Source of the DNA: Thermoproteota archaeon
Lineage (GTDB): Archaea; Thermoproteota; Thermoprotei; Thermofilales; B9-G17
Direction of reading: 5' to 3'
Length of the DNA: 64,000 nucleotides
NCBI GenBank assembly: GCA_029258885.1
Contig: JAPDJW010000003.1
Location: 64,001-128,000 of the forward strand
Part shown: positions 30,913 through 46,944 of the stretch, in pieces
Numbering within the stretch: the first letter of the stretch is position 1
Layout: each line of letters starts with the position of its first letter
Position numbers and translations under genes: made by a program
The notes under the pieces: model-generated
What the model was told of the DNA's origin: nothing
Seen by the model: the letters and a program-made list of their open reading frames with translations, nothing else
Database searches by the model: none

Positions 30913-33876
30913 ATGTTCAATAAAACTCTGCTCACAGTAATAATTATAGTTCTTATATTACATATTCAACTGCTTCACGCCAAACCTAAGAGCTACAGTG
31001 TTATTATATTTAGAGTGTATGGTGCGCCAGGAAAAATTAAAGCTTCAATAAATATAGAGGGAATAGGGACCTATACGAATATTTCAACAAGCAAAGGAGT
31101 TTTATGCTTCTATATACCGGGAGGCTTTAAAGATAGAATATTATATGCTGAGCTAACTATTGAAGGTAAATGGTATATATCACTACATGGAGAGCCCACC
31201 TATACTAAAGTTTACATAGACGGTAGGCGTAGATGGATTAAAGAGTACCCTGAGGTTCTATATTTAATAAATATTAGCGATTATCCAAGGAATATTTCAA
31301 GGTACTATGTTAAGATCACCCTCATAAAGGATCAGGAATATTCGCTTAATGGAACCACATATACTTTTTATAGGGAAATAGAGTTACATCTTAGGAAGCC
31401 TAGGTTGTTTATAACTAAATCTGTACGCATTACTTTAGATAATCCATTTAGGATAAGGATATTCTTCAGGAATTTAATATTTAATTTAGATAATTCCGTA
31501 TTTGTATGTCCACCTGAAGCCCCTGAGGCTCAAGTCTTATTATCTATGAATGTTCCAGCCAGTTCGGGAACATATTCTGATGAGTACACTTTCAATGTAT
31601 CCTTAATCGACCTACCAACTTATGGAGGATTTTTCGATCTAAGAACATACCTAATTCGTAAGATAGGTAATATTATAGTTGAGAGATATGGGGAGATGGT
31701 CGGCTTAAGTAGGTTCTTAGGCGTAAGCGCAAAGGTATATGAGTATAAGTTACATGCTATTAAGGGTTTACTTAATGCATCATGTTATATGTCAAAGAGC
31801 GGTAGTCAAGGATTTAATACAGCTTTAACAAAGGCTGTTGCCATATACTTCGAGCTAAGAAGTAGCTTAAGACATGCTATGCTTCAATCTTTCCTTTATA
31901 TGCCTATGGTTATTGCCTGCATTTTTATTTTCTCTTCTATAATTTCAAAGATATTTATAGAGAAAAGAAGGTATATTGTTACTGCATTAGTTTTTATTGC
32001 TATATTAATGATAATGTTCACATATTCCTACGAATTTAGGCTCTTCATATATACTTGGAGAGAACTGTCAGAACCTTACTCAAGCCTACAGCTTATACCG
32101 GGAGCAATAAGATATAACTATATTCTTGCTGGAGCTTTTACATTACTTCTCGGACTTTTCGCTTCAGTTTTCTTCTCCTATATAATACTATCTTCGGATA
32201 GACTAAACTATACATATCTCATTTTTAAGCGGAGGAAACTTAGACTAGCGCTTATAATAGTGACTGTTTCCATAGTTTCCTCAGCCATCATAGTTCATGG
32301 AGCTTTCATAAGCGGTCCAGTTGAAAAGGTGAGTTACAGGAGCCAATATTCTGAATACTACTTCATCACGTTTTATGGTTACCTCATTAATAGGAAATAT
32401 ATTCAAACAGTTGATGGAATAGTTCTAAAAGACTTAAGCAAATATACCTATCTTAGCCTGGGAGAATATCTCTGGATCTCTAATTTCTCCAGCGACTCTA
32501 ATGTAGTGGCTAAGAAGATAGTTAAGGTAAGCTATGGCGATAAAACAACTTATTTAAATGCCTATGCACTAAATCTAAGCTTTACAGCTAAATATCTAGA
32601 ATTTTATAGGTATGTTAACGGGTCTATAAACGGTGCGCTGCTTAGTAGCAGGGCATTTAATGAGCTGAACATATCTATTGGTAATTCTATTTCAGTTGAC
32701 GGCATTAGCTACGTAGTTTCAGGTTATTTCAACTATAGCATAATTAACTTGAAGGATTTGGACGGGGACCCGCTTTTCCGTGATCCAGTTAAAGGCGTAT
32801 TTGAAGCTCCTGATCTAATAGTTCCATTAAATGCTATAGACTCTACGTGGGCGATTATAAAAATTAGTATAATACTTAATTCGCTCAACGACATATCTAA
32901 AGCCCTTACGTATATAAGGGAAGGAGGCACAGTCATCAGGGGAATTGCTGAGCCTGATGGTTTTAATATAGTAGGCTATACTTATAGCTGCCTAATAGGC
33001 GGGGAGGGCGGGATAGTGGAAAGGGTATATGTGGATCTTCAGGGCGCGATAGTTGGCGATTGGATCGTACAAGCGGTTATAGTAGCCATATCCGTTCTTA
33101 TGATATCAATTAATGCTTTAGCCAGCTCAATTGAGAGGAGAAGAGAGTTTAAAACAATTTCATGTCTTGGAGCAAATCCAAGCTATATAATCGTTGAAGT
33201 TATATCGGAGGGTGCATCCATAGGTATCATTAGTGGTCTATTAGGATACTTTGTAGGAGAGATACTAGTATTTGCATACTGGAATATTTTAGGGACGGCT
33301 ACAATGTTTCCTCGAGTCCATATGGGTAGCTTAGTGTTAGCTCTACTAGTATCTATGATTTCAACTATTATGGGTTATCTATTGCCAGCTAGGAATGCTA
33401 TAAAAAATATTATTCCAAGCCAGCTAATAGAGAGGAGAAAGGGTAAATTCATCAGGACTTCGAGTAGTGAAATAAAGCTTACGCCTATTATTAAGTTAAA
33501 GTCTGATGAACTAAACATGTTTAAGGATTTCATGTTAACACGTTTTGTTAGATCATTGAATGAAGAGGGATTATACGGAATACGCATATATGACGTTAGG
33601 CTAATAGAGGATGAGAAAGTGCTGAGAATTGTTATGAATGGATATTTCAAGAGCCCATTTACATCCAAGAACATTGAGTTAAATATAATTACGATCCTAA
33701 AGCTTGATGAGGAGATGCTTCAGCCAGTTTTTGTAATAAAGTCAAAATACTTAAACCTAATGTTCTCGAGCGATTTAATAAATTTAATTAATAGAATAAG
33801 GGAGGCTTTAATGGAGTATATAAGTTTCAAGAAGGAAAAGCTTTTCATAAAGAGGATTCCTGTCGGGAATGCCTAA
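30913..33876 (+). CDS. large MacB/FtsX-type permease (987 aa)
   Basis: Signal peptide, ~330-aa ectodomain, TM bundle, MacB-like external domain, SIERRREFKTISCLGANP FtsX motif, cytoplasmic C-tail. Confidence 0.8.
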   Translation: MFNKTLLTVIIIVLILHIQLLHAKPKSYSVIIFRVYGAPGKIKASINIEGIGTYTNISTSKGVLCFYIPGGFKDRILYAELTIEGKWYISLHGEPTYTKVYIDGRRRWIKEYPEVLYLINISDYPRNISRYYVKITLIKDQEYSLNGTTYTFYREIELHLRKPRLFITKSVRITLDNPFRIRIFFRNLIFNLDNSVFVCPPEAPEAQVLLSMNVPASSGTYSDEYTFNVSLIDLPTYGGFFDLRTYLIRKIGNIIVERYGEMVGLSRFLGVSAKVYEYKLHAIKGLLNASCYMSKSGSQGFNTALTKAVAIYFELRSSLRHAMLQSFLYMPMVIACIFIFSSIISKIFIEKRRYIVTALVFIAILMIMFTYSYEFRLFIYTWRELSEPYSSLQLIPGAIRYNYILAGAFTLLLGLFASVFFSYIILSSDRLNYTYLIFKRRKLRLALIIVTVSIVSSAIIVHGAFISGPVEKVSYRSQYSEYYFITFYGYLINRKYIQTVDGIVLKDLSKYTYLSLGEYLWISNFSSDSNVVAKKIVKVSYGDKTTYLNAYALNLSFTAKYLEFYRYVNGSINGALLSSRAFNELNISIGNSISVDGISYVVSGYFNYSIINLKDLDGDPLFRDPVKGVFEAPDLIVPLNAIDSTWAIIKISIILNSLNDISKALTYIREGGTVIRGIAEPDGFNIVGYTYSCLIGGEGGIVERVYVDLQGAIVGDWIVQAVIVAISVLMISINALASSIERRREFKTISCLGANPSYIIVEVISEGASIGIISGLLGYFVGEILVFAYWNILGTATMFPRVHMGSLVLALLVSMISTIMGYLLPARNAIKNIIPSQLIERRKGKFIRTSSSEIKLTPIIKLKSDELNMFKDFMLTRFVRSLNEEGLYGIRIYDVRLIEDEKVLRIVMNGYFKSPFTSKNIELNIITILKLDEEMLQPVFVIKSKYLNLMFSSDLINLINRIREALMEYISFKKEKLFIKRIPVGNA

Positions 33877-35945
33877 CTTTTTAAATACAGGATAATACTC
33901 CTTGGAGGTATTTTCAGTTTTTCACCATTTAACTTAAAGCTGGAATCTTTGTCTGTGTAGTTTATAATCAATATCACCCTATTATCGCCTAACCGCCATG
34001 CGGAGATTAGAACAGGTTTTGTCTTTAATTTAACTACCTCTACTTCGTGGGGCAGCGTGTAGATTGATCTCCTAAGCAACCTTATATCGAGTTCATCTTC
34101 GATTTCAGCGCATAATTTATCAATATATCCTCCGAAGATGTATGGCCTTAAAGCCCCATACATGAGGGCTAAATTAATGAAAAACTTGATTTCTTTAACA
34201 TGTTTCTTAAGTACTTCAAGCGTTAGGTTGTGTATTGTTGGGATACAGCCCCACGAGAGAGCCCTCGAAGTCTCTAATGAAAATTGAAGTTCCTTATCAT
34301 ATAGTGGCTTATAGGAAAGCTCTGGCTTTTTATCTTCAGGCCATAGTTCATCGTAAGGAGGTTTATCCGTAAGCATTGCATAGCTTCCATAGAATAGTAT
34401 GTAGCCATTATATACGTAGTTAAAGAGTGGGATGGGACGCCATTTACCATGTATGGCTCTATACCTGCCGTACCTTTCTGAACTATTATCCAGCACGAGG
34501 AATAAGTGGAATAGATCCAAGTATGCCTCAGAGCACTCCTCGGTTGCTAAAATAACATCTCCTTTAACCTCCCTATATATTTCCTCTATTATGCGTCGAT
34601 ACCCCTCAACCCAGTAATTTCCACCGCCCAAACTGTGACCATGCTCTTTATCATAGCAGAGGGGAGGGGCTGCTGCTGCAATTTGATCCAGATATACTCC
34701 ATCAACTCCGTATTCAAGTACAAGCTTCTTAACCATGCTAACGATCTTGTTCCTCCAAAAGCCTGTATAAGGACACATCACAGCCATTGGGTGATCCATG
34801 AATCTATTATAGTGCTCCTCATACAGTTCACCAGCAGAATTCTTAGTAGCATATTTATATGCCTTTTCATCTGTCCAGCTTTTACACGTTGTATCCCATA
34901 GTCTAGCATTAACGTAGATTATAGTTACGAAGCCCCTTTCACGTAGTTCCTTAACAGTTTCAATAAACTTATCCTCTCCATCTCTGGGAGGAAAGTATTC
35001 GGGGACGTTAACATCGTAGGGATTTGAATGCCACCAGTGCCACATTAGACCTATTCTTCCGTAAGGGGCAAGGTGTCTAAATCTTATCGCTGGATCAGCG
35101 ACTTTATCACATCTGCCCCTATTCCAGATCCAACAAACAACTTCCTTAAGCCTCTCAGGAAAATCGTCTCTATTTATTATCTTGCCCCGCCTACACCACC
35201 ACTGCTTTAAGCCCCATCTCCTATACTTATCCGCAGCATCCATCCAGTTGCCGTCAAAGGGCAGTATATGCATGCTATATGGAATCGTTAATAAGCTACT
35301 ACCAATGCCTTCATCTGGAGGAAAGTATGTAAAACACACACTCTTCCCTGAGGATATTCTTAGCTCCTTAACGTAGCCCTTGCTATCGTCAAGGAACGCT
35401 ACTAATCCGCTTCTCCCAATACTATAGCCGAAGAACTGCATTGATAGGGGAGACGGATACCTGTATTTTAAGTAGTGTTTCTTTAAGGTCTCCTGAGGCT
35501 TAAAGACTTCTATGCCTTGATGATCAGGTATTATCAATGAGGCACTTAAACTATCGCTGTTTCCAAGATGGATAAAAGGATAAGATATTTCGCGTATCTC
35601 GAGACTGGGGGCTTTAGTTACCATTAGCTTAAGCTTTACTCCTCCGTATTGGCTAGGGCTAAGGGAAGCTACTACCTCCTTGATTTCTTTAAATGGAAAC
35701 TCTCTCCATTTTAAATATACTATATCTCTCTCGTGTTCGCATGTAAAATATTCGGCGGATTTCGAATCTACGTCTTTTAGAGATTTTATCAGCCACAGCT
35801 CTTTTTCTTCGTCAATTCTAGATATAGTTACTTTCTTCTCTAGATCCTCTATAGCTCTAATGCATCCCCTATTACCTAGCTCAATACCTATTTTTCCGAA
35901 CCTAAAAAATATATTATTTGAATCTCTTTGAGCTGAATTTATCAA
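33873..35945 (-). CDS. putative glycoside hydrolase (DUF6259-like, TIM barrel)
   Basis: N-terminal beta-sandwich, WHWW...PEYFP, YVNARLWD, GVDGVYLDQ, TEECSE; no signal peptide. Confidence 0.7.
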   Translation of the reverse strand: MINSAQRDSNNIFFRFGKIGIELGNRGCIRAIEDLEKKVTISRIDEEKELWLIKSLKDVDSKSAEYFTCEHERDIVYLKWREFPFKEIKEVVASLSPSQYGGVKLKLMVTKAPSLEIREISYPFIHLGNSDSLSASLIIPDHQGIEVFKPQETLKKHYLKYRYPSPLSMQFFGYSIGRSGLVAFLDDSKGYVKELRISSGKSVCFTYFPPDEGIGSSLLTIPYSMHILPFDGNWMDAADKYRRWGLKQWWCRRGKIINRDDFPERLKEVVCWIWNRGRCDKVADPAIRFRHLAPYGRIGLMWHWWHSNPYDVNVPEYFPPRDGEDKFIETVKELRERGFVTIIYVNARLWDTTCKSWTDEKAYKYATKNSAGELYEEHYNRFMDHPMAVMCPYTGFWRNKIVSMVKKLVLEYGVDGVYLDQIAAAAPPLCYDKEHGHSLGGGNYWVEGYRRIIEEIYREVKGDVILATEECSEAYLDLFHLFLVLDNSSERYGRYRAIHGKWRPIPLFNYVYNGYILFYGSYAMLTDKPPYDELWPEDKKPELSYKPLYDKELQFSLETSRALSWGCIPTIHNLTLEVLKKHVKEIKFFINLALMYGALRPYIFGGYIDKLCAEIEDELDIRLLRRSIYTLPHEVEVVKLKTKPVLISAWRLGDNRVILIINYTDKDSSFKLNGEKLKIPPRSIILYLKS

Positions 35946-38900
35946 TATATTCCCTCCTCATTTCAGGCTTTAGCGATCTCCAAACTAGAAGCTGCTTCCT
36001 AATGGCGTCTATAAAGTTCCTGCTTGATAACACCCACGTATCATATACTCCGCTAAGCCTTCTAAGCATAATATCTAGGAAGTGTCTATCCCCTCTCCTT
36101 ATCACGGTTATAGTGGCCTTAGTTATTATCTTAGCCTCATAGGGGGCAAGCGATAAAACTATGTCAACTGAAGGAACCTCGGGATCGAACTTAACTTCCC
36201 TTATAATAAACTTCTCAACGGTTTCCCTCTTATGAAGCTCGGCATATTCGTACAGGAATAGCAGTGCGCCGCCCGCCTCTAGGATGTTCGTGAATACGAA
36301 TGGAAGAGGTATTTCCCATTCATCGCCTCTTGGCTTTGTGGGGAGCTCCCACTTTCTAGCTAGGGATGGCGTTACAAGCCTAGCGGCCTTGTAAATCGGG
36401 TATATGGAGGGGATTAGGGTTGCTGCCATGGCGAAAATCATCGAGAAGAGCACGGCCATTGAGGTATAGTTTACTATGAATGTCTCTGGAAGTACGTTGA
36501 ATGCCTTAAGTATGTGATTGAAGAGTAGGCCTAGCGTGTATCCCACTAGCGTCGATATGAAGGCGAAAACTAATAACTCGCCTAAGAATAGGAAAATGAC
36601 GCCGGACGGCGGAAGACCTAAGGCTGAATAAATACTCATTTCCCTCTCCCTCATCTTGAGGACATTCAACATGCTGTTTAATATAGTGCCTGATCCGATC
36701 AGCAGAGGTATTAGTATGAATGCAAGCCCCCTAAACTCGTAGGCCGGAAGCCTAGAGAACAGCGAGACCTTGCCATTATAGCTATAGTATACTTCAAGAT
36801 CTAGGCTCATTGCGATAGTTCTGGCGATATCCTCTCCCTCCTCCTTCAGGTATATAGATATGCTCGATACATGTCCACCAAGTCTTTTAACTAAATTATG
36901 AGGAAGTATTAGTACTTCGCTAGCTGATAGGGGTACATAGCTATCGGATCCTCCGGGAACCGATTTCTTGAGGGTTGCAACCATGAGATTTGGATTAAAT
37001 GGCATAATGCTCTCCTGATCGAGATCCAGGTAGCTGTTAATTACATCTGATGCAACTATGCCTACAACCTTAAGCTTCATACCCTGCCACCACACCCAGT
37101 CTCCAACGCTCACGTTAAGTTTCTCGGATACCTTATCCGCCAGGATACATGCATAGTAGTCGTACTCATCGAAGCCCCTGCCCTCTACGATGCTTGACCT
37201 GAACAATTCATTATATTTAAATTCACCCGGTGAGAGGCCTAGGGCAGCATATATCACAGTTTTCTTATCTTTTGCTTCCAAATATGCAAACACCTGGTCT
37301 CCAAATACGGATTGAGGATAGTACCACAGTCTTGGAGCTACCGCGCCTCTATCGCCTACCATCGACCTAAGGTATTCTATTATTGAGTAGCTTAGAAAGT
37401 CCTTAGTAGTCTTCATCCCCTTTCTCATGTATATTCCGTTATACCTGGCTTCTACTGGGAGTTCGGTGCGCTTTAGCGTTACGAAGCTTTCAATTGAGGT
37501 TAGTGAAACCATGCTTAAAACGATGATTATTATTGTTAAGAATAATAATATGCTCAGGAACTTTCTCCTCCTAATATTTCCCATTGCAACGTGTACCGAG
37601 TGGATTATTATTGACGTTCTCTCCCTCTCAACTACGTGATGTTTAAGTATCTTCCTTCTGATCATTGATCCCATTTCTATTGCAGACTTCGTTAACACGA
37701 TACCGACTATTCCGAAGAAGAGAAGGGTCGATAGGCCAAGGTAGGCGATCGGTATATTTGCTACAAGCCTAAGGCTTGGATGAAGGAAATAAAATATCAC
37801 CAGGATGAGTGATGCGATAATTAGTATTGTAAAAAGCCTTTTAAGTCCTTCAAACTGGAGGGTTATTCTCTCTATAAAGAATACGGATGGTATTAGTAGG
37901 AAGAAGAAGAATACGCTTATAATTGCGGGTTCATTAACTAGCCTCATGACCTCACTATAGTATACCATCCCAAGGCTCCACGAGGCTAGGGCATAAGCAT
38001 ATGCTTTACTATATTTCCTTTCCTTCAGACTGGCTAGGCATAGGCTATGATACTCTTCCATGGCCTTTATGTTCTCCTCTAAAGCTATGTTCTCGATCAT
38101 ATTCTTCTTTAGGTTAGAGTATCTGGTTGAGATTATTGTGGCTATGTCGTTGGAGGCATTAATTGCTGAGAGTATTATCTCAGCGCCTCTCTGAACCTTA
38201 TAGCCGTAGCCGTCTGGATGAAGCTGTGACGAATTAATAAGAACTACTGAAGTTCTCTTTTCAGGTCCTACCTTCAATATAAGTGCAAACCTTGAACCCG
38301 GAGGCGTGAATATAGTCGCTATTCCCTCGCTGGGTACATAGACGAAGCCATACCTTATGAACTCGCTTAGGGTGGAGACATCGTATATCATAATCGTTGG
38401 AACCATATTTACCCATGGAGTATTAAGGAATCTAGAATCTAAAAGCACGGGCTCGGATATTCTGGATATATCGTAAAGATCAATGATTGTTGCCGAAGCG
38501 CAGGAGAAGACTACCGTTGTAAGCTGGTATGGATGTGAATCCACTAGACTCCAGAATAGTATTGATTTCGAGCCATACTGACCTAGATCGGGGGCCTTAA
38601 CTATGAGGCCTGTATTCCCATCTAGAAGGTATGCTTCGGTATAATATCCTATACCTTCCTTCTGCAGTATTTGTACTCCGCCAGCTCCCCAAAGCACGGT
38701 CCCGCCTATGGCTGAGCCTACTCCTAGACCATGCACGACAAACCCGCCGGTTTCATTACATTTAACTATGATGTGCATGAAGGGGTATGTTGAGCTTGGA
38801 CTCCTTGTAACCACTGCAAGGGCATATGGAACTCTGTCGTACCAGTTCTTAGTGTAATTAAATTCTAGTACCTTACCGTAGGCTGTTATAAACCCTGCTA

Positions 38901-40365
38901 GCTCGCCAGCCGGGCTATAGAATATTCTACTGGGCTTAACCATGCTCCAGTCAACGGAGAATTCGGGATCGTTCACAAAGCCATAAATTATTGCCGATGA
39001 AGCTAATGCTTGAATCCTAATATTCTCAAGATTGACGTATTTGATATCGCTCTTAGGAGTACCCCATCTATGTCTCAGTGAACCGCAGGTTCTAAGTGCA
39101 AGCCCCATTCCATGGGCCATGGTAACGGGCTCTATATCCAGCATAAATGGCCCAGAGATATCATCCCACCATCCCTCAACCACTAAGCCGTTCTCCACTA
39201 TACTCCCTAAATCTACGCCCAGCTGAGCCGATGCATCCTTAAGGTATTTATCGAAAACGTTTGGTATAACGTATTTCTGATACTTACTTAGAACTTGAAC
39301 GCTACCATAATCGTAGAAGTATCCTCTATAAGTTAATAATAGCCTATTATTATCCGACGATAGATCCAAGCCTACTACTACAAGTAGCTTCCTCTCACCA
39401 CTAATTATATCTTCAGAACCAAAGATAGCTTTCTCCATAAACTCCCTTGCGCCAGCAAGTGCCTGCCAGTGTCCCGAAACGAATACTAACCATAAGGTTC
39501 TCAGTGGTCTATTTTTAGAGAAGTATTCAGCTAAAAGGAGGAGTAGTGAGGGCGAAGTAGCTTCGTCCGCCCCAGGAGCTATAGCTGGGACAACAGACCA
39601 AGTATCGTAGTGTGCAATAACTGCTACTATCTCATCCTTCCTCTCACCCTCTATCTCCGCAACTATAATACTTGACTTTACAATTTCATAGTCCATGTTC
39701 ACGTGTATCCTAATTACCGAGTGATTTTCAGCTAACTGCTTAAGTAAAGCTCCTGTTTCACGATCAACATATAATCTGGGGAAGTACACGGGGGCTGAGG
39801 ATATCTTAGCTATAGCCTCCGGATAGCTGGTTTCATCAGGCTCTATAAATATAACCCCCCTGGCGCCAAACCTTAGCAGGTTTATCCAATTCTTTCCAGA
39901 GTTGAATTCAATCAGGGCTATGGAACCATATATATCCTTGTCGTCCAAATCCTCTAAATCCCCATCCCCAACATAGACAAGCCGTCCCTCAATTCCGGTT
40001 GGAGGAGTTTTACATGTCTGAACGTAGTTAGGCCAAAGAGCATAGGCGTTAAGCCTTAGACTTACGGGTTCAATAACTTCTATGTAAGAGCTCCTGTCAA
40101 GCGGCACCGTAACCTCGTATTCAATGATCCTATAACTCACGTTTATTTCCTTAAGTCGACTTACTATGAAGTTAGCTGCATCATTGCATCCACTGTACCC
40201 CGTAACCCTTGAGCCAAAGCTGGATAGCTTCTCAATATATTCTTTTAGCTTATTTACGTCGATACTATTGGCTAAACCTTCATAATCCATGGGTGGTGTT
40301 GCCTTAACATATGCTTGTAGGGCAAGTAAAAGTATTAGTAGCATTAGAGCTATTCTTGCCTTCAT
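35914..40365 (-). CDS. giant MacB/FtsX-type permease with N-terminal PA + M28-fold ectodomain
   Basis: Signal peptide MKARIAL (ATG 40365 preferred to 40425); SSFGSRVTGY, PA domain, AHYDT, APGADE, SGHW, LDLSSD; REREMSIYSALGL FtsX motif. Confidence 0.85.
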   Translation of the reverse strand: MKARIALMLLILLLALQAYVKATPPMDYEGLANSIDVNKLKEYIEKLSSFGSRVTGYSGCNDAANFIVSRLKEINVSYRIIEYEVTVPLDRSSYIEVIEPVSLRLNAYALWPNYVQTCKTPPTGIEGRLVYVGDGDLEDLDDKDIYGSIALIEFNSGKNWINLLRFGARGVIFIEPDETSYPEAIAKISSAPVYFPRLYVDRETGALLKQLAENHSVIRIHVNMDYEIVKSSIIVAEIEGERKDEIVAVIAHYDTWSVVPAIAPGADEATSPSLLLLLAEYFSKNRPLRTLWLVFVSGHWQALAGAREFMEKAIFGSEDIISGERKLLVVVGLDLSSDNNRLLLTYRGYFYDYGSVQVLSKYQKYVIPNVFDKYLKDASAQLGVDLGSIVENGLVVEGWWDDISGPFMLDIEPVTMAHGMGLALRTCGSLRHRWGTPKSDIKYVNLENIRIQALASSAIIYGFVNDPEFSVDWSMVKPSRIFYSPAGELAGFITAYGKVLEFNYTKNWYDRVPYALAVVTRSPSSTYPFMHIIVKCNETGGFVVHGLGVGSAIGGTVLWGAGGVQILQKEGIGYYTEAYLLDGNTGLIVKAPDLGQYGSKSILFWSLVDSHPYQLTTVVFSCASATIIDLYDISRISEPVLLDSRFLNTPWVNMVPTIMIYDVSTLSEFIRYGFVYVPSEGIATIFTPPGSRFALILKVGPEKRTSVVLINSSQLHPDGYGYKVQRGAEIILSAINASNDIATIISTRYSNLKKNMIENIALEENIKAMEEYHSLCLASLKERKYSKAYAYALASWSLGMVYYSEVMRLVNEPAIISVFFFFLLIPSVFFIERITLQFEGLKRLFTILIIASLILVIFYFLHPSLRLVANIPIAYLGLSTLLFFGIVGIVLTKSAIEMGSMIRRKILKHHVVERERTSIIIHSVHVAMGNIRRRKFLSILLFLTIIIIVLSMVSLTSIESFVTLKRTELPVEARYNGIYMRKGMKTTKDFLSYSIIEYLRSMVGDRGAVAPRLWYYPQSVFGDQVFAYLEAKDKKTVIYAALGLSPGEFKYNELFRSSIVEGRGFDEYDYYACILADKVSEKLNVSVGDWVWWQGMKLKVVGIVASDVINSYLDLDQESIMPFNPNLMVATLKKSVPGGSDSYVPLSASEVLILPHNLVKRLGGHVSSISIYLKEEGEDIARTIAMSLDLEVYYSYNGKVSLFSRLPAYEFRGLAFILIPLLIGSGTILNSMLNVLKMREREMSIYSALGLPPSGVIFLFLGELLVFAFISTLVGYTLGLLFNHILKAFNVLPETFIVNYTSMAVLFSMIFAMAATLIPSIYPIYKAARLVTPSLARKWELPTKPRGDEWEIPLPFVFTNILEAGGALLFLYEYAELHKRETVEKFIIREVKFDPEVPSVDIVLSLAPYEAKIITKATITVIRRGDRHFLDIMLRRLSGVYDTWVLSSRNFIDAIRKQLLVWRSLKPEMRREYIDKFSSKRFK

Positions 40366-40421
40366 TGATCGACACCTGATATATTTATCTGAGAACATAT
40401 TAATTTGTATGTTCATAATCG

Positions 40422-42389
40422 TCACCAGGGAAGTATCCAGGTAGCCTTAGACAACATAACGATCGACGTGGCTATGCCCACTACGACTGCTTCGCCTGTA
40501 GCTACTCCAGCTACTATAACGCCTCTATTCTTCCTCCACCAGTTCTCCCCGTACATTCTGGCCAGAAATCTGGCGATAATAGCGCCTATAATAAGACTTA
40601 TCGAGTTTGCGGGCAGTATATATGTCCCGGCGACGAGGCCGACTATGGAGAAGGGGAAGTTAAGGATTCTACTTAAAGTATCCCCGATAAACGCTACAGC
40701 TAACACCAGTATGAAGGAGTACAATATGGTGTCAACCTTCACTCCTATCTGTCTGCTAATCCACAACGCGCTTGTAGCTACGCTTACAGGCCACTGTATG
40801 TTCGTGAATGGGTATAGCGACGAGGGTATTGGAGCTATGCTCCAGAAGAAGGATACGTATATGAAGCTAAATACCGTATAGAGTACGACGGCCGTAAAAT
40901 ATGCCTTAAAGAAGTCCTCGGGCCTTGTCTCTGTTAGGAAGGCTGCCTTTATGGTGTTTCCCCATTGGGGCGAAGCTGTGAAAGGTAGGCCAAGCTGGGA
41001 TACTGTCGGAGTTAAACCGCTGAACATGGGGGAGAAGAGCCATGCATCCACCTTAGGATATCCTGAGCCAATTACGGCAAGCTGCCATATATAGGGTATC
41101 GATATCGGATAGCCTGATTCAGCTATGCTTCTTGAAGCAACCAGCGAGTAGGTGAATCCTCCCCCTATAGCGATTAAGATCGCCAGCCATAGGGGGAAGT
41201 CGGGTACTATTAGATGAAACAGCAGTATTGATCCCAGAGATCCTGCTAAATAGAGCGTAGCTAGCGTTTTCAGACTTATATATCCCTTCCTTAAGACGTC
41301 AGTCCTAAGTCTGGATAGGCTCTTAAATGCCGATACAATGCTTCTTCTACTCTTAAATATTGAGAACACGGCTACCGCTAGTGCAAAGCCTATAAATGGA
41401 GTTATCCATACCCTGAGGAAGGATCTTTGGTAAACGGTTGATATGGTCATGCCTCTTGCCCATTCAATAGCCCATTCCTTAAAGTAATTAGCTAAGTAAG
41501 TTCTAGTTAGATAATTGCCGAAAACCCATACAGCTATTGATCCTATAAACATATAGACCACGGTGTGGAATGGAATTAAGAATGCTCCAGTAAATGTTAG
41601 AGGATCTGTTGCGAGGCCTAAGATAGCGCCCGGAAGGATATTTTCGATCCCAAAGGGGCCAGTAGTCAAATCGAGCCATGGAATTGGTATTACAACAATT
41701 CGGGTATTAAATAGACCTAACGAAATCGTCGGAACCCCATAGAGTATTATCGAATATATGGCGCCTAAAATAGCACTTGTTGTGAATATTCTCATCCTAT
41801 CCTCCTCTCTCTCAGCTAATGTAATGCACATCTGGGCTGGAAACTCGGCAAAGGGATAGGGTAGCTTCTCTTCCTCTATGAAGATGTAGGCCATTATGTA
41901 TGCTAACGCAACTTCCTGAATAAGCCATAAAAATATCTGAACCAAATATAGTGAGACTGGTATTATCCACTTTGAATTAAGAAAGCTTCTAACGGCTGTA
42001 GCTGGTAGTCTGGGAACCCACCATTCAGGAATTACTTCACTTAGAGGTTTTCCAGAATAAGGATCGTAGAAGGACTTCGATATGGGCGAAGTGAAGAAGT
42101 AAAATCTATAGACGAACTCTAAAAATGGAGCTCCTAAGAGAACTGGCGCTGCGGCCTGATATATTATGAATATCTCCTGCTTAGTTAGGGGCTTATCCAT
42201 AAGCCTCGAAATTTCTGTAAAAAGTATTGCGGTTATGTATGTTATAGCGCTTGCTAGGATAGCACCTGAAGTAAGCTGAATATATATCGATACCGGGAGT
42301 AGGAGTGAAGCTGCAACAAATATCGCAAGAAAAGATCTAAATGTATATCCTTTTTTTAAAACATATTCTTCACTCACATAATCACCCAT
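40422..42389 (-). CDS. OPT-superfamily-like multipass membrane transporter
   Basis: Over 12 TM; GYTFRS, KQEIF, EEEKLPYP motifs. Confidence 0.75.
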   Translation of the reverse strand: MGDYVSEEYVLKKGYTFRSFLAIFVAASLLLPVSIYIQLTSGAILASAITYITAILFTEISRLMDKPLTKQEIFIIYQAAAPVLLGAPFLEFVYRFYFFTSPISKSFYDPYSGKPLSEVIPEWWVPRLPATAVRSFLNSKWIIPVSLYLVQIFLWLIQEVALAYIMAYIFIEEEKLPYPFAEFPAQMCITLAEREEDRMRIFTTSAILGAIYSIILYGVPTISLGLFNTRIVVIPIPWLDLTTGPFGIENILPGAILGLATDPLTFTGAFLIPFHTVVYMFIGSIAVWVFGNYLTRTYLANYFKEWAIEWARGMTISTVYQRSFLRVWITPFIGFALAVAVFSIFKSRRSIVSAFKSLSRLRTDVLRKGYISLKTLATLYLAGSLGSILLFHLIVPDFPLWLAILIAIGGGFTYSLVASRSIAESGYPISIPYIWQLAVIGSGYPKVDAWLFSPMFSGLTPTVSQLGLPFTASPQWGNTIKAAFLTETRPEDFFKAYFTAVVLYTVFSFIYVSFFWSIAPIPSSLYPFTNIQWPVSVATSALWISRQIGVKVDTILYSFILVLAVAFIGDTLSRILNFPFSIVGLVAGTYILPANSISLIIGAIIARFLARMYGENWWRKNRGVIVAGVATGEAVVVGIATSIVMLSKATWILPW

Positions 42390-42436
42390 TTACTACATAA
42401 AAATAAAAAGAAGGAGGGTTTGATATCTTTAGCTAT

Positions 42437-44449
42437 CTACATGAGCTTAGGCAGACCTATCATGAATGTTGCTAGGAACGCTACTAGGGAGGCGTTTACT
42501 CCGTAGCCTACTAGGTATCCGATTATAAACGGTGTAGCCTTCTCTTCAAACAGTTTTGATCCTCCAATTCTAAGTATTATATATTTGATTATTAGTGAGA
42601 ATATTGGCGGTATCCAAACCCATGTTGTAGTTGGTAATATTAGGAATGCCAATGGATCTATGAAGAACCACGCAAACTTTGTCCTAAGGAAGTAGAGTAT
42701 GAAGGTAATTATTATTCCGCCTATCATTAGACCATATCTCTCAGCCGGATCGAATGCTAATATTGTTGGAGTCCCCTTAACCCATGAATATACTTCAGGC
42801 GATACCCACATATAGAAGGGTGGGCCTGGGGGTCCATTGTTAGCTAAACCTCCGATTGCGTGGTACCACCATATAACTAGCGGTGTAGTTATGATTGCAG
42901 CGGATATAATGGTTATCACTGCGGTGAAGAATAAGTCTCTTCCAAGAGTGTTTGTTGTGGGGCCGAGCCTATATATCTTAAACTGGTGGTGCATTGTAAG
43001 GTTGCTTATTCTCTGCCCGGTGTTAGCTGCACCAGTTACTAAGGTGAATGTAACTAATGCCGTCTGGTTTTCAGCTGGTGGAACTGGAGGCCATGCACCC
43101 ATTATTGCGCCAGCATCATATCTAAACCAGTTAAAGGCATGCCCATAGGGCATGAACTCGAAAGATACTCCCATAAGCCTTGTCCATCCATATAGCATTA
43201 GTATGTGGAGTATCATGAATACAAGTACTACTAGGAATGGAACACCGCTACCTAGTAAGAATATTAGGAACAATATTGATATAGCTACTGTGCCGACTGA
43301 TAGCAGCCTATATGATAAGCCGCTGTCCTCCATTTTAGCATACTCCTTATCCCATAAGGCCCTAAGTATATTCAGGAAGTGTTCCCTGTGGTTATAGACG
43401 ACCCACAGACCTACGCCGAGACCTATACCCCAGATACAGAATAGGTGCCACTTAAATGGACCATATCTTAAACCATAGTACGCGGCATTTGTCTCTACGC
43501 CCGGGCTATAGGGTAGTATTCCCGTGGTAACTCCTACTACTGGATATAGCACTGCGAATATAAACCAGCCTATAATAATTGTTATCAAGAAGTCAGTTGG
43601 CGTAAACATCCATATTAGAATGTCAGTAACTCTAACGTTTCCATAGAAGAAGGCTCCCGGAAGTATACCCTTAGTATAGGGAGTTAAGTCGATTGTGTAA
43701 ACGCCCAGATAGGCGGAAGAAGGTACGGTAGGTATGAAGTATCTTAGGGTATCTAAGAAGGTCATTAGGAATCCGAGCACGAAAGCAACCCAGAATATCT
43801 TAGTAGCCGTATTCTTAAAGTTAAATAGCCAAACCTTACCGTCAACCTCCTTAGTAGCATATTCTATTAGGTAGACGCCTGGAAGTATGCCGGGGAACGG
43901 AAGCTGCTCAACCTCTATCAGCGGTTTTCTAAGCCAGTATCCCCAGAATGTCTCGAACAACATGTAGAGTATAAGGAATAGAGTCCAGTAGATTATATGT
44001 GGCATCCATGCGCCCCAGTCCAGGTATCCGCCATTCCAGAAGTTTTCTAATGCAGTGCCGCTTGGAGAGAAGTATGGTGGTATCATATCCCATACATCCT
44101 TAAATGCCTCAGTATGCCTCATATAAACTGGAATAAGCTGAGCCCAACTGGGTATCTGGCAGGTGCTATAGGCGCCTGACATATATACTCCATATGTGAA
44201 TGTGTTAGCTACCAGGAAGAAGAGGGCGAAGAGTATAGCGTACTCTTGAGGAGCTAGTTTAATCTTATTCCTCAGTAGGTAGAGTATCACTATTACGACT
44301 ATGAAGGGTGGAGGGAACCATACCCTATAAGCCCACCATAGTGTAAGCGATGAGTTAATAATTGACTGGAAGAAGTTTAGTAGTACGACAATGGGTATCA
44401 GTACAATTATCCATGGTTTAAGATAACTCCTTCTAACTTCCTCTCCCAT
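42437..44449 (-). CDS. DUF6785-like multipass membrane protein (OPT-related)
   Basis: Over 12 TM; IEVEQLPFP, FFIDP, IGGSKLFEE; ATG 44449 after GGTG. Confidence 0.7.
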   Translation of the reverse strand: MGEEVRRSYLKPWIIVLIPIVVLLNFFQSIINSSLTLWWAYRVWFPPPFIVVIVILYLLRNKIKLAPQEYAILFALFFLVANTFTYGVYMSGAYSTCQIPSWAQLIPVYMRHTEAFKDVWDMIPPYFSPSGTALENFWNGGYLDWGAWMPHIIYWTLFLILYMLFETFWGYWLRKPLIEVEQLPFPGILPGVYLIEYATKEVDGKVWLFNFKNTATKIFWVAFVLGFLMTFLDTLRYFIPTVPSSAYLGVYTIDLTPYTKGILPGAFFYGNVRVTDILIWMFTPTDFLITIIIGWFIFAVLYPVVGVTTGILPYSPGVETNAAYYGLRYGPFKWHLFCIWGIGLGVGLWVVYNHREHFLNILRALWDKEYAKMEDSGLSYRLLSVGTVAISILFLIFLLGSGVPFLVVLVFMILHILMLYGWTRLMGVSFEFMPYGHAFNWFRYDAGAIMGAWPPVPPAENQTALVTFTLVTGAANTGQRISNLTMHHQFKIYRLGPTTNTLGRDLFFTAVITIISAAIITTPLVIWWYHAIGGLANNGPPGPPFYMWVSPEVYSWVKGTPTILAFDPAERYGLMIGGIIITFILYFLRTKFAWFFIDPLAFLILPTTTWVWIPPIFSLIIKYIILRIGGSKLFEEKATPFIIGYLVGYGVNASLVAFLATFMIGLPKLM

Positions 44450-44622
44450 AAGAAACACCAATGTAAAATAAAATTTTAAGTATTTAAGTTTGGATATTTT
44501 TATTAATCAAAAAATTTTTTTAAAATTTAAAAATATTTATATTCAAGAAAATAATATAAAATATGGTTTTAAATTTGCTTTAGAATAAAGATTTAGCATT
44601 AACTTGGAATTCTATTATTGAG

Positions 44623-44861: not shown

Positions 44862-45305
44862 GTGGAGTGTATGGAGTCTGATAAAACCTTTGAAGCTATT
44901 GCTCATCCATTAAGGATAAAGATATTGAAGTTGCTGGCAGAGAGACCTATGAGTTTCTCCGAGTTAAAGAGGAGGCTTGGAATAAAGAGTAGCGGTAAGC
45001 TGGATTTCCACTTGAAGAAACTAGACAACTTAATAGTTTTAGATGAAGATGGAAAATACACGTTGACTAGAGAGGGCTATGCGGCACTACAGGCTATTAT
45101 CACAATTAAAAGGTATGGATGGCAGAAGAGAGCCTTCATATTAAATACAGCAGTCTACATTGCGGTTATGATCTATACAGAGTGTGTTATAGTGTGGAGA
45201 GGATTTAGCCCGCTATACGTTGCTGTAATGGTGCTTACATCACTCTGGTACGTATACTACTTCTATGTATCTATTGTGAAGAGGAAGGTCTTTAAAGTAT
45301 GTTAG
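44862..45305 (+). CDS. ArsR-type HTH regulator with two C-terminal TM helices
   Basis: AIAHPLRIKILKLL...SFSELKRRLG...LDFHLKKL, then hydrophobic tail. Confidence 0.85.
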   Translation: MECMESDKTFEAIAHPLRIKILKLLAERPMSFSELKRRLGIKSSGKLDFHLKKLDNLIVLDEDGKYTLTREGYAALQAIITIKRYGWQKRAFILNTAVYIAVMIYTECVIVWRGFSPLYVAVMVLTSLWYVYYFYVSIVKRKVFKVC

Positions 45306-45346
45306 GGGGCGAGTTTTCGTAGGCTGATGAAGGGGGTGCTGGAGGC

Positions 45347-46273
45347 ATGGGGATGAGGGTTATTGAGGTTGAAAATTTAGCTAAAGAGTTCAATGGGAGA
45401 ACAGTGCTACGTGGGATAACTTTCCACGTTAGGAGGGGTGAGGTCTTTGGTCTACTTGGACCTAATGGTTCGGGTAAAACAACGACGATGAGGATAATTC
45501 TTGGATTGCTTAAGCCGACTTCGGGGAAGGTACGTGTTCTCGGCGGTTCGCTGGCGGACGACGCCAAGCTTAGGAGTAGAGTCGGCGTAGTGTTGGAGGG
45601 TGATGGCTTGTTTACTAGACTTTCAGCCTATGAAAATCTCGACTTTTACGCTAGAATCTACGGGTTAAGGGACGGTGTGGAGAGAAGAGAGAGGATTAGG
45701 GAGCTACTGGAGCTCGTAGGCTTATATGATGTGAGAAATATGAAGGTGGGTTATTTTTCCAAGGGTATGAGGAGGAGGCTTGCGCTAGCTAGAGCACTAA
45801 TTCACTATCCTGAAGTATTGCTTCTCGATGAGCCGACTTCTGGTTTAGACCCTGAGGCGAAGGCTATGGTAAGGGATCTGGTGATCAAGCTCTCTAGGGG
45901 TGATGGAGTAACAGTTCTCTATACATCCCATGACCTGAATGAGGTTGAAAAAGTATGCTCTAGGATAGCAGTGCTAGTGAAAGGTAGGATAATAGTTCAA
46001 GGTGTGCTTAACGACCTACTTGAGGAATGTAGCGGACAGGTAATGGAGGTATGTTTCACTAGTAGTGATGATGCGTCTAAAGCTTTCGAGTACTTGAGGA
46101 TGTTGGACTATGTACCAGAATGCAGGATGTATGGGAAAACTGTGCATCTGGTAACACTTGGCAATACACGCAGGCTTCTAAGAGACCTTGTGGAAATGAA
46201 CCTTGGAGTTGAGGAGGTAAGGAGGGTAAGGAGGACTCTCGAGGAGATATATCTAGAGCTTGTTAGGAGGTGA
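45347..46273 (+). CDS. ABC exporter ATP-binding subunit
   Basis: GPNGSGKT, FSKGMRRR, LLDEP, TSH. Confidence 0.95.
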   Translation: MGMRVIEVENLAKEFNGRTVLRGITFHVRRGEVFGLLGPNGSGKTTTMRIILGLLKPTSGKVRVLGGSLADDAKLRSRVGVVLEGDGLFTRLSAYENLDFYARIYGLRDGVERRERIRELLELVGLYDVRNMKVGYFSKGMRRRLALARALIHYPEVLLLDEPTSGLDPEAKAMVRDLVIKLSRGDGVTVLYTSHDLNEVEKVCSRIAVLVKGRIIVQGVLNDLLEECSGQVMEVCFTSSDDASKAFEYLRMLDYVPECRMYGKTVHLVTLGNTRRLLRDLVEMNLGVEEVRRVRRTLEEIYLELVRR

Positions 46274-46944
46274 ACTCAAATATGATAGGAGTTATTGTAT
46301 GGAAAGAGCTTAAGGAGAGTACGAGGGACAGAAACCTACTATCCAGTATAGTGGGCGTAGCAATACTATTAATGCTTTTAAATTTATCGTCGAGATTCCC
46401 AACCGTCAGTGTGGAGTTTCTTGTACTCTATATGGCGCCGTGTATAGGCGTTTTCATAGGATTTAGTATGAGCAGTAGATTTGTAAGGGAGAAGCGGGAG
46501 GGAACTATAGAGACTATGCTCTGTACTCCGCTGACGCTGAAAGAACTATGGCTTGGTAAAGTAATTGGACTAGCATTACCATCATATGCCGTTACCTTAA
46601 CCTCAATGCTTATTCTAGCATATTTTAAAGGCTATATCATGAAGGAGGCTATAACGATATATTTAACGCTGGCAGTGCCCATCCTCATAGCATCGGTTAT
46701 TGGTTTACTCGGATTCCTCTATTACGTCCTAGGTATGAGGCAAATACAAGCACTTAACTACCTAGTATTCCTTACATTATTCACATTATTCTTCGCATTA
46801 ACTAGGAGCTTAACGAGAGGGGTCATCACTATAACGTGGGAGATTATAGGAGCTGTGCTGGCCTTCTCAGCAATGATTCTGTACATAGTAGCCTATCTGA
46901 TAACTCGCCTAGACAAGGAGAGGATAGTAACCACACTAGACTAA
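46270..46944 (+). CDS. ABC-2 type exporter permease
   Basis: EKREGTIETMLCTP...GK motif; 6 TM. Confidence 0.9.
   Translation: MNSNMIGVIVWKELKESTRDRNLLSSIVGVAILLMLLNLSSRFPTVSVEFLVLYMAPCIGVFIGFSMSSRFVREKREGTIETMLCTPLTLKELWLGKVIGLALPSYAVTLTSMLILAYFKGYIMKEAITIYLTLAVPILIASVIGLLGFLYYVLGMRQIQALNYLVFLTLFTLFFALTRSLTRGVITITWEIIGAVLAFSAMILYIVAYLITRLDKERIVTTLD

Follow-up and report, generated by a model that had tools for sequence, protein, structure and literature searches.

We analyzed a window of 64,000 nucleotides (G000:C4:64001-128000; positions are those of the window unless another contig is named) from the genome of a Thermoproteota archaeon (2.10 Mb in 26 contigs, 99.9% complete), and within it a locus at 30913-44449 that an earlier note had read as a candidate uptake machine made of transporters, large permeases and a hydrolase. 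DNA of the window is also present in hydrothermal-vent and sediment metagenomes, and the closest relatives of its proteins carry the labels Bathyarchaeia or Thermoprotei. The locus consists of a four-gene operon and a fifth gene that converges on it:

Open reading frame (ORF) 42437-44461, database start ATG at 44449, minus strand: P0005, a DUF6785/DUF6784 polytopic permease of 670-674 amino acids (aa), first gene of the operon.
40422-42389, minus strand: P0004, an OPT-family permease of 655 aa (Pfam OPT).
ORF 35914-40425, database start ATG at 40365, minus strand: P0003, a giant membrane protein of 1483-1503 aa with Peptidase_M28, MacB_PCD and FtsX domains.
33873-35945, minus strand: P0002, a predicted cytoplasmic DUF6259 protein of 690 aa, last gene of the operon.
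30913-33876, plus strand: P0001, a second, smaller, duplicated FtsX-type protein of 987 aa with 8 transmembrane segments (TM).

The five ORFs lie where the earlier note had placed them, with the tight minus-strand spacing that it described, and all of their Pfam domains score above the cut-offs. The genes for P0003 and P0002 overlap by 32 bp, and those for P0002 and P0001 share 4 bp at their convergent stops (33873-33876). The genes for P0005, P0004 and P0003, hereafter the triad, are not confined to the window. Seven DUF6785 genes were recovered by a whole-genome profile search and an eighth by BLAST, each beside a giant, and BLAST of the five proteins against the ORFs of the genome delineated eight loci, each encoding a giant of 1,471-1,520 aa, an OPT-like protein of 623-655 aa and a DUF6785-like protein of 659-692 aa. 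When homologues were sought elsewhere, as the earlier note had proposed, the triad was found in varying gene order in other archaea and in bacteria. It occurs on metagenomic archaeal contigs with NamZ, polysaccharide deacetylase, GFO/IDH/MocA and UxuA genes; in an archaeal metagenome-assembled genome (MAG) beside GH66, GH15 and two Glucodextran_C genes (GH, glycoside hydrolase family); in a Brockarchaeota MAG; in Staphylothermus marinus F1 beside two GH57 genes, GH1 and GT5; and in Desulfovibrio mangrovi, an Armatimonadota MAG and a Planctomycetaceae MAG. Locus L048, the nearest orthologue, keeps the gene order of the window (DUF6785-OPT-giant-DUF6259); NamZ is divergent there, and P0001 has no orthologue. 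Because the triad recurs eight times in this genome and again in other archaea and bacteria, its arrangement is far beyond chance.

The neighbors of the eight triad copies in this genome are as follows:

Locus A (the window): DUF6259.
Locus B: GHL10 and AnmK.
Locus C: a PQQ-propeller/Ig surface protein, GH3, a C39-like peptidase and NamZ.
Locus D: no recognized carbohydrate-active enzyme (CAZyme).
Locus E: GH130 and TrmB.
Locus F: a surface-anchored GH57 and a cytoplasmic PSMA-like GH57.
Locus G: GH36 melibiase, galK, galT, galE, a PfkB kinase and a SIS protein.
Locus H: no recognized CAZyme; a C25-like peptidase.

Six of the eight copies adjoin carbohydrate genes, with surface-anchored proteins nearby. 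Many of the neighbors combine a signal peptide with a C-terminal TM anchor, coiled-coil stalked surface proteins are encoded in loci D, E and F, and the exo-acting enzymes (GH130, GH36, PSMA-GH57, NamZ and DUF6259) carry neither signal peptide nor C-terminal anchor. No other transporter was found across the eight loci. The earlier note had likened the window locus to a polysaccharide utilization locus (PUL), and the likeness holds, in that enzymes or binders at the surface are grouped with a membrane system and with catabolic enzymes of the cytoplasm. It does not extend to the SusC/SusD type of PUL: neither a SusC-like TonB-dependent transporter nor a SusD-like lipoprotein is encoded in the window or at the seven other loci. 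Loci B and C are adjacent (G000 C1:188000-222300; L008 and L009) and together carry AnmK, a surface GHL10, GH3, NamZ, the C39-like peptidase and an ornithine/diaminopimelate decarboxylase-type gene; as a pair they look like a system for archaeal uptake and breakdown of bacterial peptidoglycan fragments.

Two of the triad proteins are permeases of related fold. P0004 matches the OPT family (PF03169) over residues 160-636 at 45 bits, against a cut-off of 25.8, and a sequence search of the PDB with it gave no match to any solved structure. P0005 matches DUF6785 (55 bits) and DUF6784 (40 bits) and joins the OPT family only through a profile-profile match to the OPT-like group; in this comparison the DUF6785-like and OPT-like groups aligned over 598 columns (hhalign probability 99.9%, E 1.7e-34). 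The suggestion that the two are related permeases is borne out, since they are full-length homologues and are always encoded with an M28-FtsX giant. Judged by these profiles, P0005 is best regarded as a diverged OPT-superfamily paralogue, and each locus thus holds a pair of diverged OPT-fold permeases. The eight OPT-like paralogues of this genome share 25-50% identity, and each lies inside a triad. Most members of the DUF6785 family (413 representatives at E <= 0.001) come from archaea and some from bacteria.

The third triad protein, the giant P0003, has the permease domains of type VII ATP-binding cassette (ABC) transporters. Its FtsX domain scores 47.7 bits, and that of P0001 39 bits (PF02687 cut-off 25.5), and its MacB_PCD match (30.6 bits against a cut-off of 27) indicates a large extracytoplasmic domain of that type. 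From the TM map and Pfam, the order of parts is an N-terminal TM, an ectodomain of ~800 aa resembling PA/M28, three TM, FtsX TM1, the MacB periplasmic core domain, FtsX TM2-4 and a cytoplasmic C-terminal domain of ~150 aa. A sequence search of the PDB with P0003 gave only weak FtsX/M28 matches. The family is present across archaea and several bacterial phyla, and in members of 1,750-2,400 aa the added length is an inserted ectodomain, which rules out fusion to an OPT protein as its source. At the positions that we take to be the M28 motif sites, the Glu-Glu pair is kept in 0 of 54 giants, its place being taken by S/G-G-H-aromatic-Q, and in 30 of them Tyr or Phe replaces the His that serves as first zinc ligand, so that the Glu-Glu pair and zinc ligands of an M28 metallopeptidase are not found together in any of the 54. 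Since the Glu-Glu site is replaced and the first ligand is variable, the head of the giant appears to be a pseudo-peptidase. The C-terminal domain carries a motif, F(I/V)DAxRKQLLxWR, that is near-invariant from archaea to bacteria, including Desulfovibrio, and gave no usable match in the ESM Atlas. In the window this conserved cytoplasmic domain occupies the tail of the giant (35914-36370), and a related domain lies in the tail of P0001 (33400-33876).

P0001 itself stands apart from the triad. An AlphaFold2 model (predicted local distance difference test score, pLDDT, 69) has 8 TM, a MacB-type ectodomain and an alpha/beta C-terminal domain; it matches HrtB, MacB, LolC/E, YtrF and BceB, aligns over 792 columns to the duplicated permease YbbP, and also matches MacB/YknZ periplasmic domains. 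The permeases so matched all operate with ATPases. Scores for the ADOP duplicated orphan permeases (TIGR03434) reach 22-25 bits against a cut-off of 622, far too low for membership of that family. The earlier note had counted P0001 as a part of the machine, and this was not supported: the gene is missing from the orthologous locus L048, and a match at E <= 1e-20 was found in only 11 of 41 related genomes. Locus G of the same genome has an equivalent of 957 aa inside its operon. From this distribution we regard P0001 as an optional or independent member that is not conserved. Four further large FtsX proteins of this genome (974-1,351 aa; G000 C2:159914-163969, C3:29551-32688, C14:9067-11991 and C1:266426-269827) have the same 8-TM layout and neither an OPT partner nor an adjacent ATPase.

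The DUF6259 protein P0002 (Pfam E 8e-98) had been called a hydrolase in the earlier note, a claim now upheld at the level of the fold. The AlphaFold2 model (pLDDT 93.9) consists of a beta-sandwich, a (beta/alpha)8 barrel and a second beta-sandwich, which is the three-domain layout of GH129 and the GH-D-like clan. Its top Foldseek matches are the GH129 structures 5opq and 5wzn (E 3e-27, template-modelling scores 0.64-0.72, identity 12-14%), followed by GH36, GH31 and GH101; phmmer found no match to P0002 in the PDB. Residues D420, E469 and E473 are invariant in 36 DUF6259 proteins. The protein has neither signal peptide nor TM and is predicted to be cytoplasmic. In two Bacteroidota, Chitinophaga (L049) and Parapedobacter (L050), DUF6259 is the terminal gene of SusC-SusD-X-DUF6259 loci, where X is an unannotated protein of 631-664 aa. 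Because DUF6259 ends these SusC/SusD loci, the archaeal triad fills the slot that the SusC/SusD transporter has there. The Parapedobacter gene is flanked by two MurQ-like SIS genes and an SSF symporter, a lead to the substrate of DUF6259. Since NamZ adjoins the archaeal orthologues and MurQ-like SIS genes adjoin the Parapedobacter gene, there is a hint that P0002 may act on an amino sugar or a lactyl-ether sugar.

The earlier note had also described the machine as having no ATPase and no solute-binding protein. Inside 30913-44449 neither is encoded, and no ATPase lies in cis at any of the eight loci of this genome. As a property of the machine, the lack of an ATPase did not stand, because LolD-type ATPases lie beside the triad in four distant genomes and their orthologues are encoded here in trans. 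The triad is adjoined by two ABC ATPases and a 183-aa FtsX in S. marinus, by one ATPase and a 243-aa FtsX in D. mangrovi, by one ATPase, a 234-aa FtsX and PqqD in the Armatimonadota MAG, and by two ATPases, PqqD and an FtsX whose C-terminal part best matches small FtsX in the Planctomycetaceae MAG. An 896-aa gene of the latter was considered as a fusion of small FtsX and DUF6785, and this was rejected, the protein being an FtsX with a large ectodomain. The genome-wide search for a MacB-type ATPase in trans that the earlier note had proposed found two orphan ATPases orthologous to these triad-linked ones, with a small FtsX next to the second:

G000 C2:342683-343423: orphan ATPase 1, LolD/MacB-class.
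G000 C2:376287-377009: orphan ATPase 2, LolD/MacB-class.
G000 C2:377013-377675: small FtsX of 220 aa with 4 TM, best match to the triad-linked small FtsX proteins.

The cis ATPases of the four distant genomes share 66-76% identity with the two orphans, vs. 46-50% with the five conventional MacB-type ATPases of this genome, each of which adjoins an FtsX of ~390 aa. In a maximum-likelihood tree the two orphans and the six cis ATPases form one clade (support 87/99), with the conventional ATPases outside. Both orphans keep the Walker A, Q-loop, signature, Walker B and H-loop motifs, and their neighborhood consists of housekeeping genes (dph5, RPA, NMD3 and THUMP). The one giant of D. mangrovi lies next to the only clade ATPase of that genome, where the other ATPases are at most 45% identical. 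In a co-occurrence survey that covered 41 genomes of the order, 20 of 21 DUF6785-positive genomes vs. 5 of 20 DUF6785-negative ones encoded one or more clade ATPases, and the small FtsX accompanied the triad in 18 genomes, with the triad alone in 3, the small FtsX alone in 5 and neither in 15; these counts support a link and fall short of proof, because the genomes are related and cannot be treated as independent samples. Of the five genomes that have the putative motor and no triad, four contain other large FtsX proteins, the exception being G002, and genomes without the motor have just 1-4 conventional FtsX genes. Wherever a genome with several triads was checked, the motor and the DUF6785 genes were on separate contigs. 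Taken together, these data suggest that the triad is probably powered by the two ATPase genes elsewhere in the genome. The four further large FtsX proteins may use this motor as well.

An ABC ATPase gene does lie close to the locus, at 45347-46273 on the plus strand, 0.9 kb past its upper edge. It was rejected as the motor: it overlaps an ABC-2 permease gene (46270-46944), and its product is 37% identical to the clade ATPases. With the ArsR/DUF7347-type helix-turn-helix gene that precedes it, it forms a separate small exporter module (44862-46944, plus strand), divergent from the operon, which may share with it a 400-bp intergenic promoter region. Homologues of other genes found beside the triad elsewhere are scattered in this genome, namely a PqqD/RRE-like protein of 146 aa, a 311-aa protein of no family and a 124-aa protein (G000 C2:253424-253864, C8:14961-15896 and C2:306215-306589, respectively); a peptide-binding RRE in a transport system is an unexplained feature. 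At G000 C1:604430-605887, a MacB-type ATPase frame with stop codons adjoins an FtsX of 264-283 aa, possibly a decayed conventional pair.

On balance, we lean towards reading the minus-strand operon as one substrate-specific cassette of a modular glycan import system with a shared motor encoded in trans. The observations on which we build are gene content, folds and conservation, the position of clade ATPases in cis to the triad in other genomes, and the phylogenetic co-occurrence of the two. Every one of the eight cassettes would bring its own giant and its own OPT-fold pair, in most cases along with enzymes or binders anchored at the surface and sugar-processing enzymes in the cytoplasm, and the motor common to them would consist of the two LolD/MacB-class ATPases and the 220-aa FtsX. 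Oligosaccharides would be released or held by the surface proteins. Driven by ATP hydrolysis through MacB-style mechanotransmission, the ectodomains of the giant would catch an oligosaccharide or glycopeptide and pass it on, the OPT-fold pair would provide the path across the membrane, and the cytoplasmic enzyme would cleave the cargo last. We infer that the proteins form a physical complex, that the ATPases dock on it and that transport is inward; the substrate of the window cassette is possibly an amino-sugar glycan. More tentatively, and at somewhat less than even chances, the system may represent a new class of importer in archaea and bacteria, in which a MacB-fold mechanotransmission unit with a shared, unlinked, heterodimeric ATPase is coupled to an OPT-fold heterodimer, the archaeal cassettes being the equivalent of PULs.

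Several points weigh against this proposal. We know of no type VII ABC system that imports. OPT proteins are thought to use proton-motive force alone, so that two energy sources may be redundant or may serve different steps. In G002, a genome of the same order that is 95% complete, the small FtsX is present together with a clade ATPase, but neither a large FtsX nor a DUF6785 gene was detected; its motor may therefore have another job, or its partners may have been missed. The small FtsX went undetected in three DUF6785-positive genomes (83-93% complete), and the shared ancestry of the 41 genomes has been mentioned. Loci D and H have no recognized CAZyme, and the latter has the C25-like peptidase. 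The D. mangrovi locus lies among glycosyltransferases, which fits export as well as import.

The alternative that survives best, which we nevertheless consider unlikely, is a system free of ATPases, in which the giant is a passive receptor or scaffold, the OPT-fold pair imports by proton-motive force, and the trans ATPases and small FtsX belong to a separate housekeeping system. It would account for the missing ATPase at the eight loci and at several other archaeal ones, for the housekeeping genes around the trans ATPases and for G002, where the motor occurs with no large FtsX detected. However, four distant lineages encode clade ATPases in cis to the triad, motor and triad tend to be present in the same genomes, and the FtsX fold is known only from ATP-driven systems (MacB, LolCDE, FtsEX, HrtBA and YbbAP). 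The conserved cytoplasmic C-terminal domain of the giant likewise implies a cytoplasmic partner.

Less likely again is the scavenging of peptides or glycopeptides such as muropeptides, with the M28-like head and OPT heritage reflecting a peptide cargo and the glycosidase trimming its glycan after import. OPT family membership, the C25-like peptidase of locus H and the contents of loci B and C (AnmK, NamZ, GH3, the C39-like peptidase and the decarboxylase-type gene) are consistent with such a cargo, as are the NamZ genes adjoining orthologues of the window locus and the MurQ-like SIS genes beside the Parapedobacter DUF6259. Yet the catalytic Glu-Glu of M28 is lost family-wide, and loci E, F and G, together with those of S. 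marinus and the GH66/GH15 MAG, are plainly sugar loci (mannoside, alpha-glucan, alpha-galactoside and dextran). Least probable of all, in our judgment, is envelope biogenesis or remodelling in the manner of FtsEX or LolCDE, with the giant activating or positioning surface enzymes or stalked proteins and the OPT-fold proteins exporting or flipping a glycan or lipid-linked intermediate: characterized type VII ABC systems all act outward or on extracytoplasmic partners, and the stalked proteins of loci D, E and F and the glycosyltransferases around the D. mangrovi triad would suit it, but these same operons also encode catabolic enzymes of the cytoplasm (GH130 phosphorylase, GH36, Leloir genes and sugar kinases) and TrmB, without any other importer.

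The proposed import system shares parts with several known ones. A literature search on the DUF6785, DUF6784 and DUF6259 families and on the giant/OPT architecture found no paper describing it. With the type VII ABC systems (YbbAP, LolCDE, MacAB-TolC, FtsEX and HrtBA) it has in common the 4-TM FtsX unit, the MacB periplasmic core domain and linkage to LolD/MacB-class ATPases. It differs from them in that the giant adds the ~800-aa dead-peptidase head, four extra TM and the conserved cytoplasmic C-terminal domain, always has two OPT-fold permeases encoded alongside it, and has ATPases that are here unlinked and apparently common to many permeases, in a context that points to import. To the OPT/Yellow-Stripe-like family (PF03169, TC 2.A.67) it is tied by P0004, which passes the Pfam cut-off, and by P0005, a full-length homologue of the OPT-like group; unlike in that family, the permeases always come as two diverged paralogues next to an FtsX giant, and the context is carbohydrate rather than peptide or metal chelate. 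SusC/SusD PULs are similarly substrate-specific cassettes (surface enzymes or binders, transporter, intracellular glycosidases and regulator) multiplied within a genome, and DUF6259 is common to both (SusC-SusD-X-DUF6259 vs. DUF6785-OPT-giant-DUF6259), but the archaeal loci have no SusC/SusD, outer membrane or TonB, and their transporter parts are entirely different. In Actinobacteria and Firmicutes, "multitask" ATPases of the MsiK/MalK type are encoded by one unlinked gene and serve many substrate-specific permease cassettes, a comparable single supply for many cassettes; those systems, however, are type I importers with solute-binding proteins, in contrast to the LolD-class ATPases and MacB-fold and OPT-fold permeases described here. 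Lastly, P0002 has the three-domain layout of GH129 (the alpha-N-acetylgalactosaminidase NagBb and the 3,6-anhydro-D-galactosidase ZgGH129), but it belongs to Pfam DUF6259 and is only 12-14% identical.

What is new here is the eight-fold archaeal expansion of the triad in carbohydrate loci, the DUF6259-based argument for the SusC/SusD slot and an unlinked, probably shared motor. Because cultured S. marinus F1 carries the whole system in one locus, the idea is directly testable. If it is correct, a MacB-fold ABC system would for the first time be linked to import, and its OPT-fold proteins would be the first to work with an ABC motor. A motor shared in trans would also explain "orphan" FtsX permeases that are annotated as lacking an ATPase. 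To our knowledge, little is known of how uncultured Thermoproteota and Bathyarchaeia take up complex carbohydrates; if the proposal holds, these cassettes would be a major route of carbohydrate uptake and a marker for predicting substrates from genomes.

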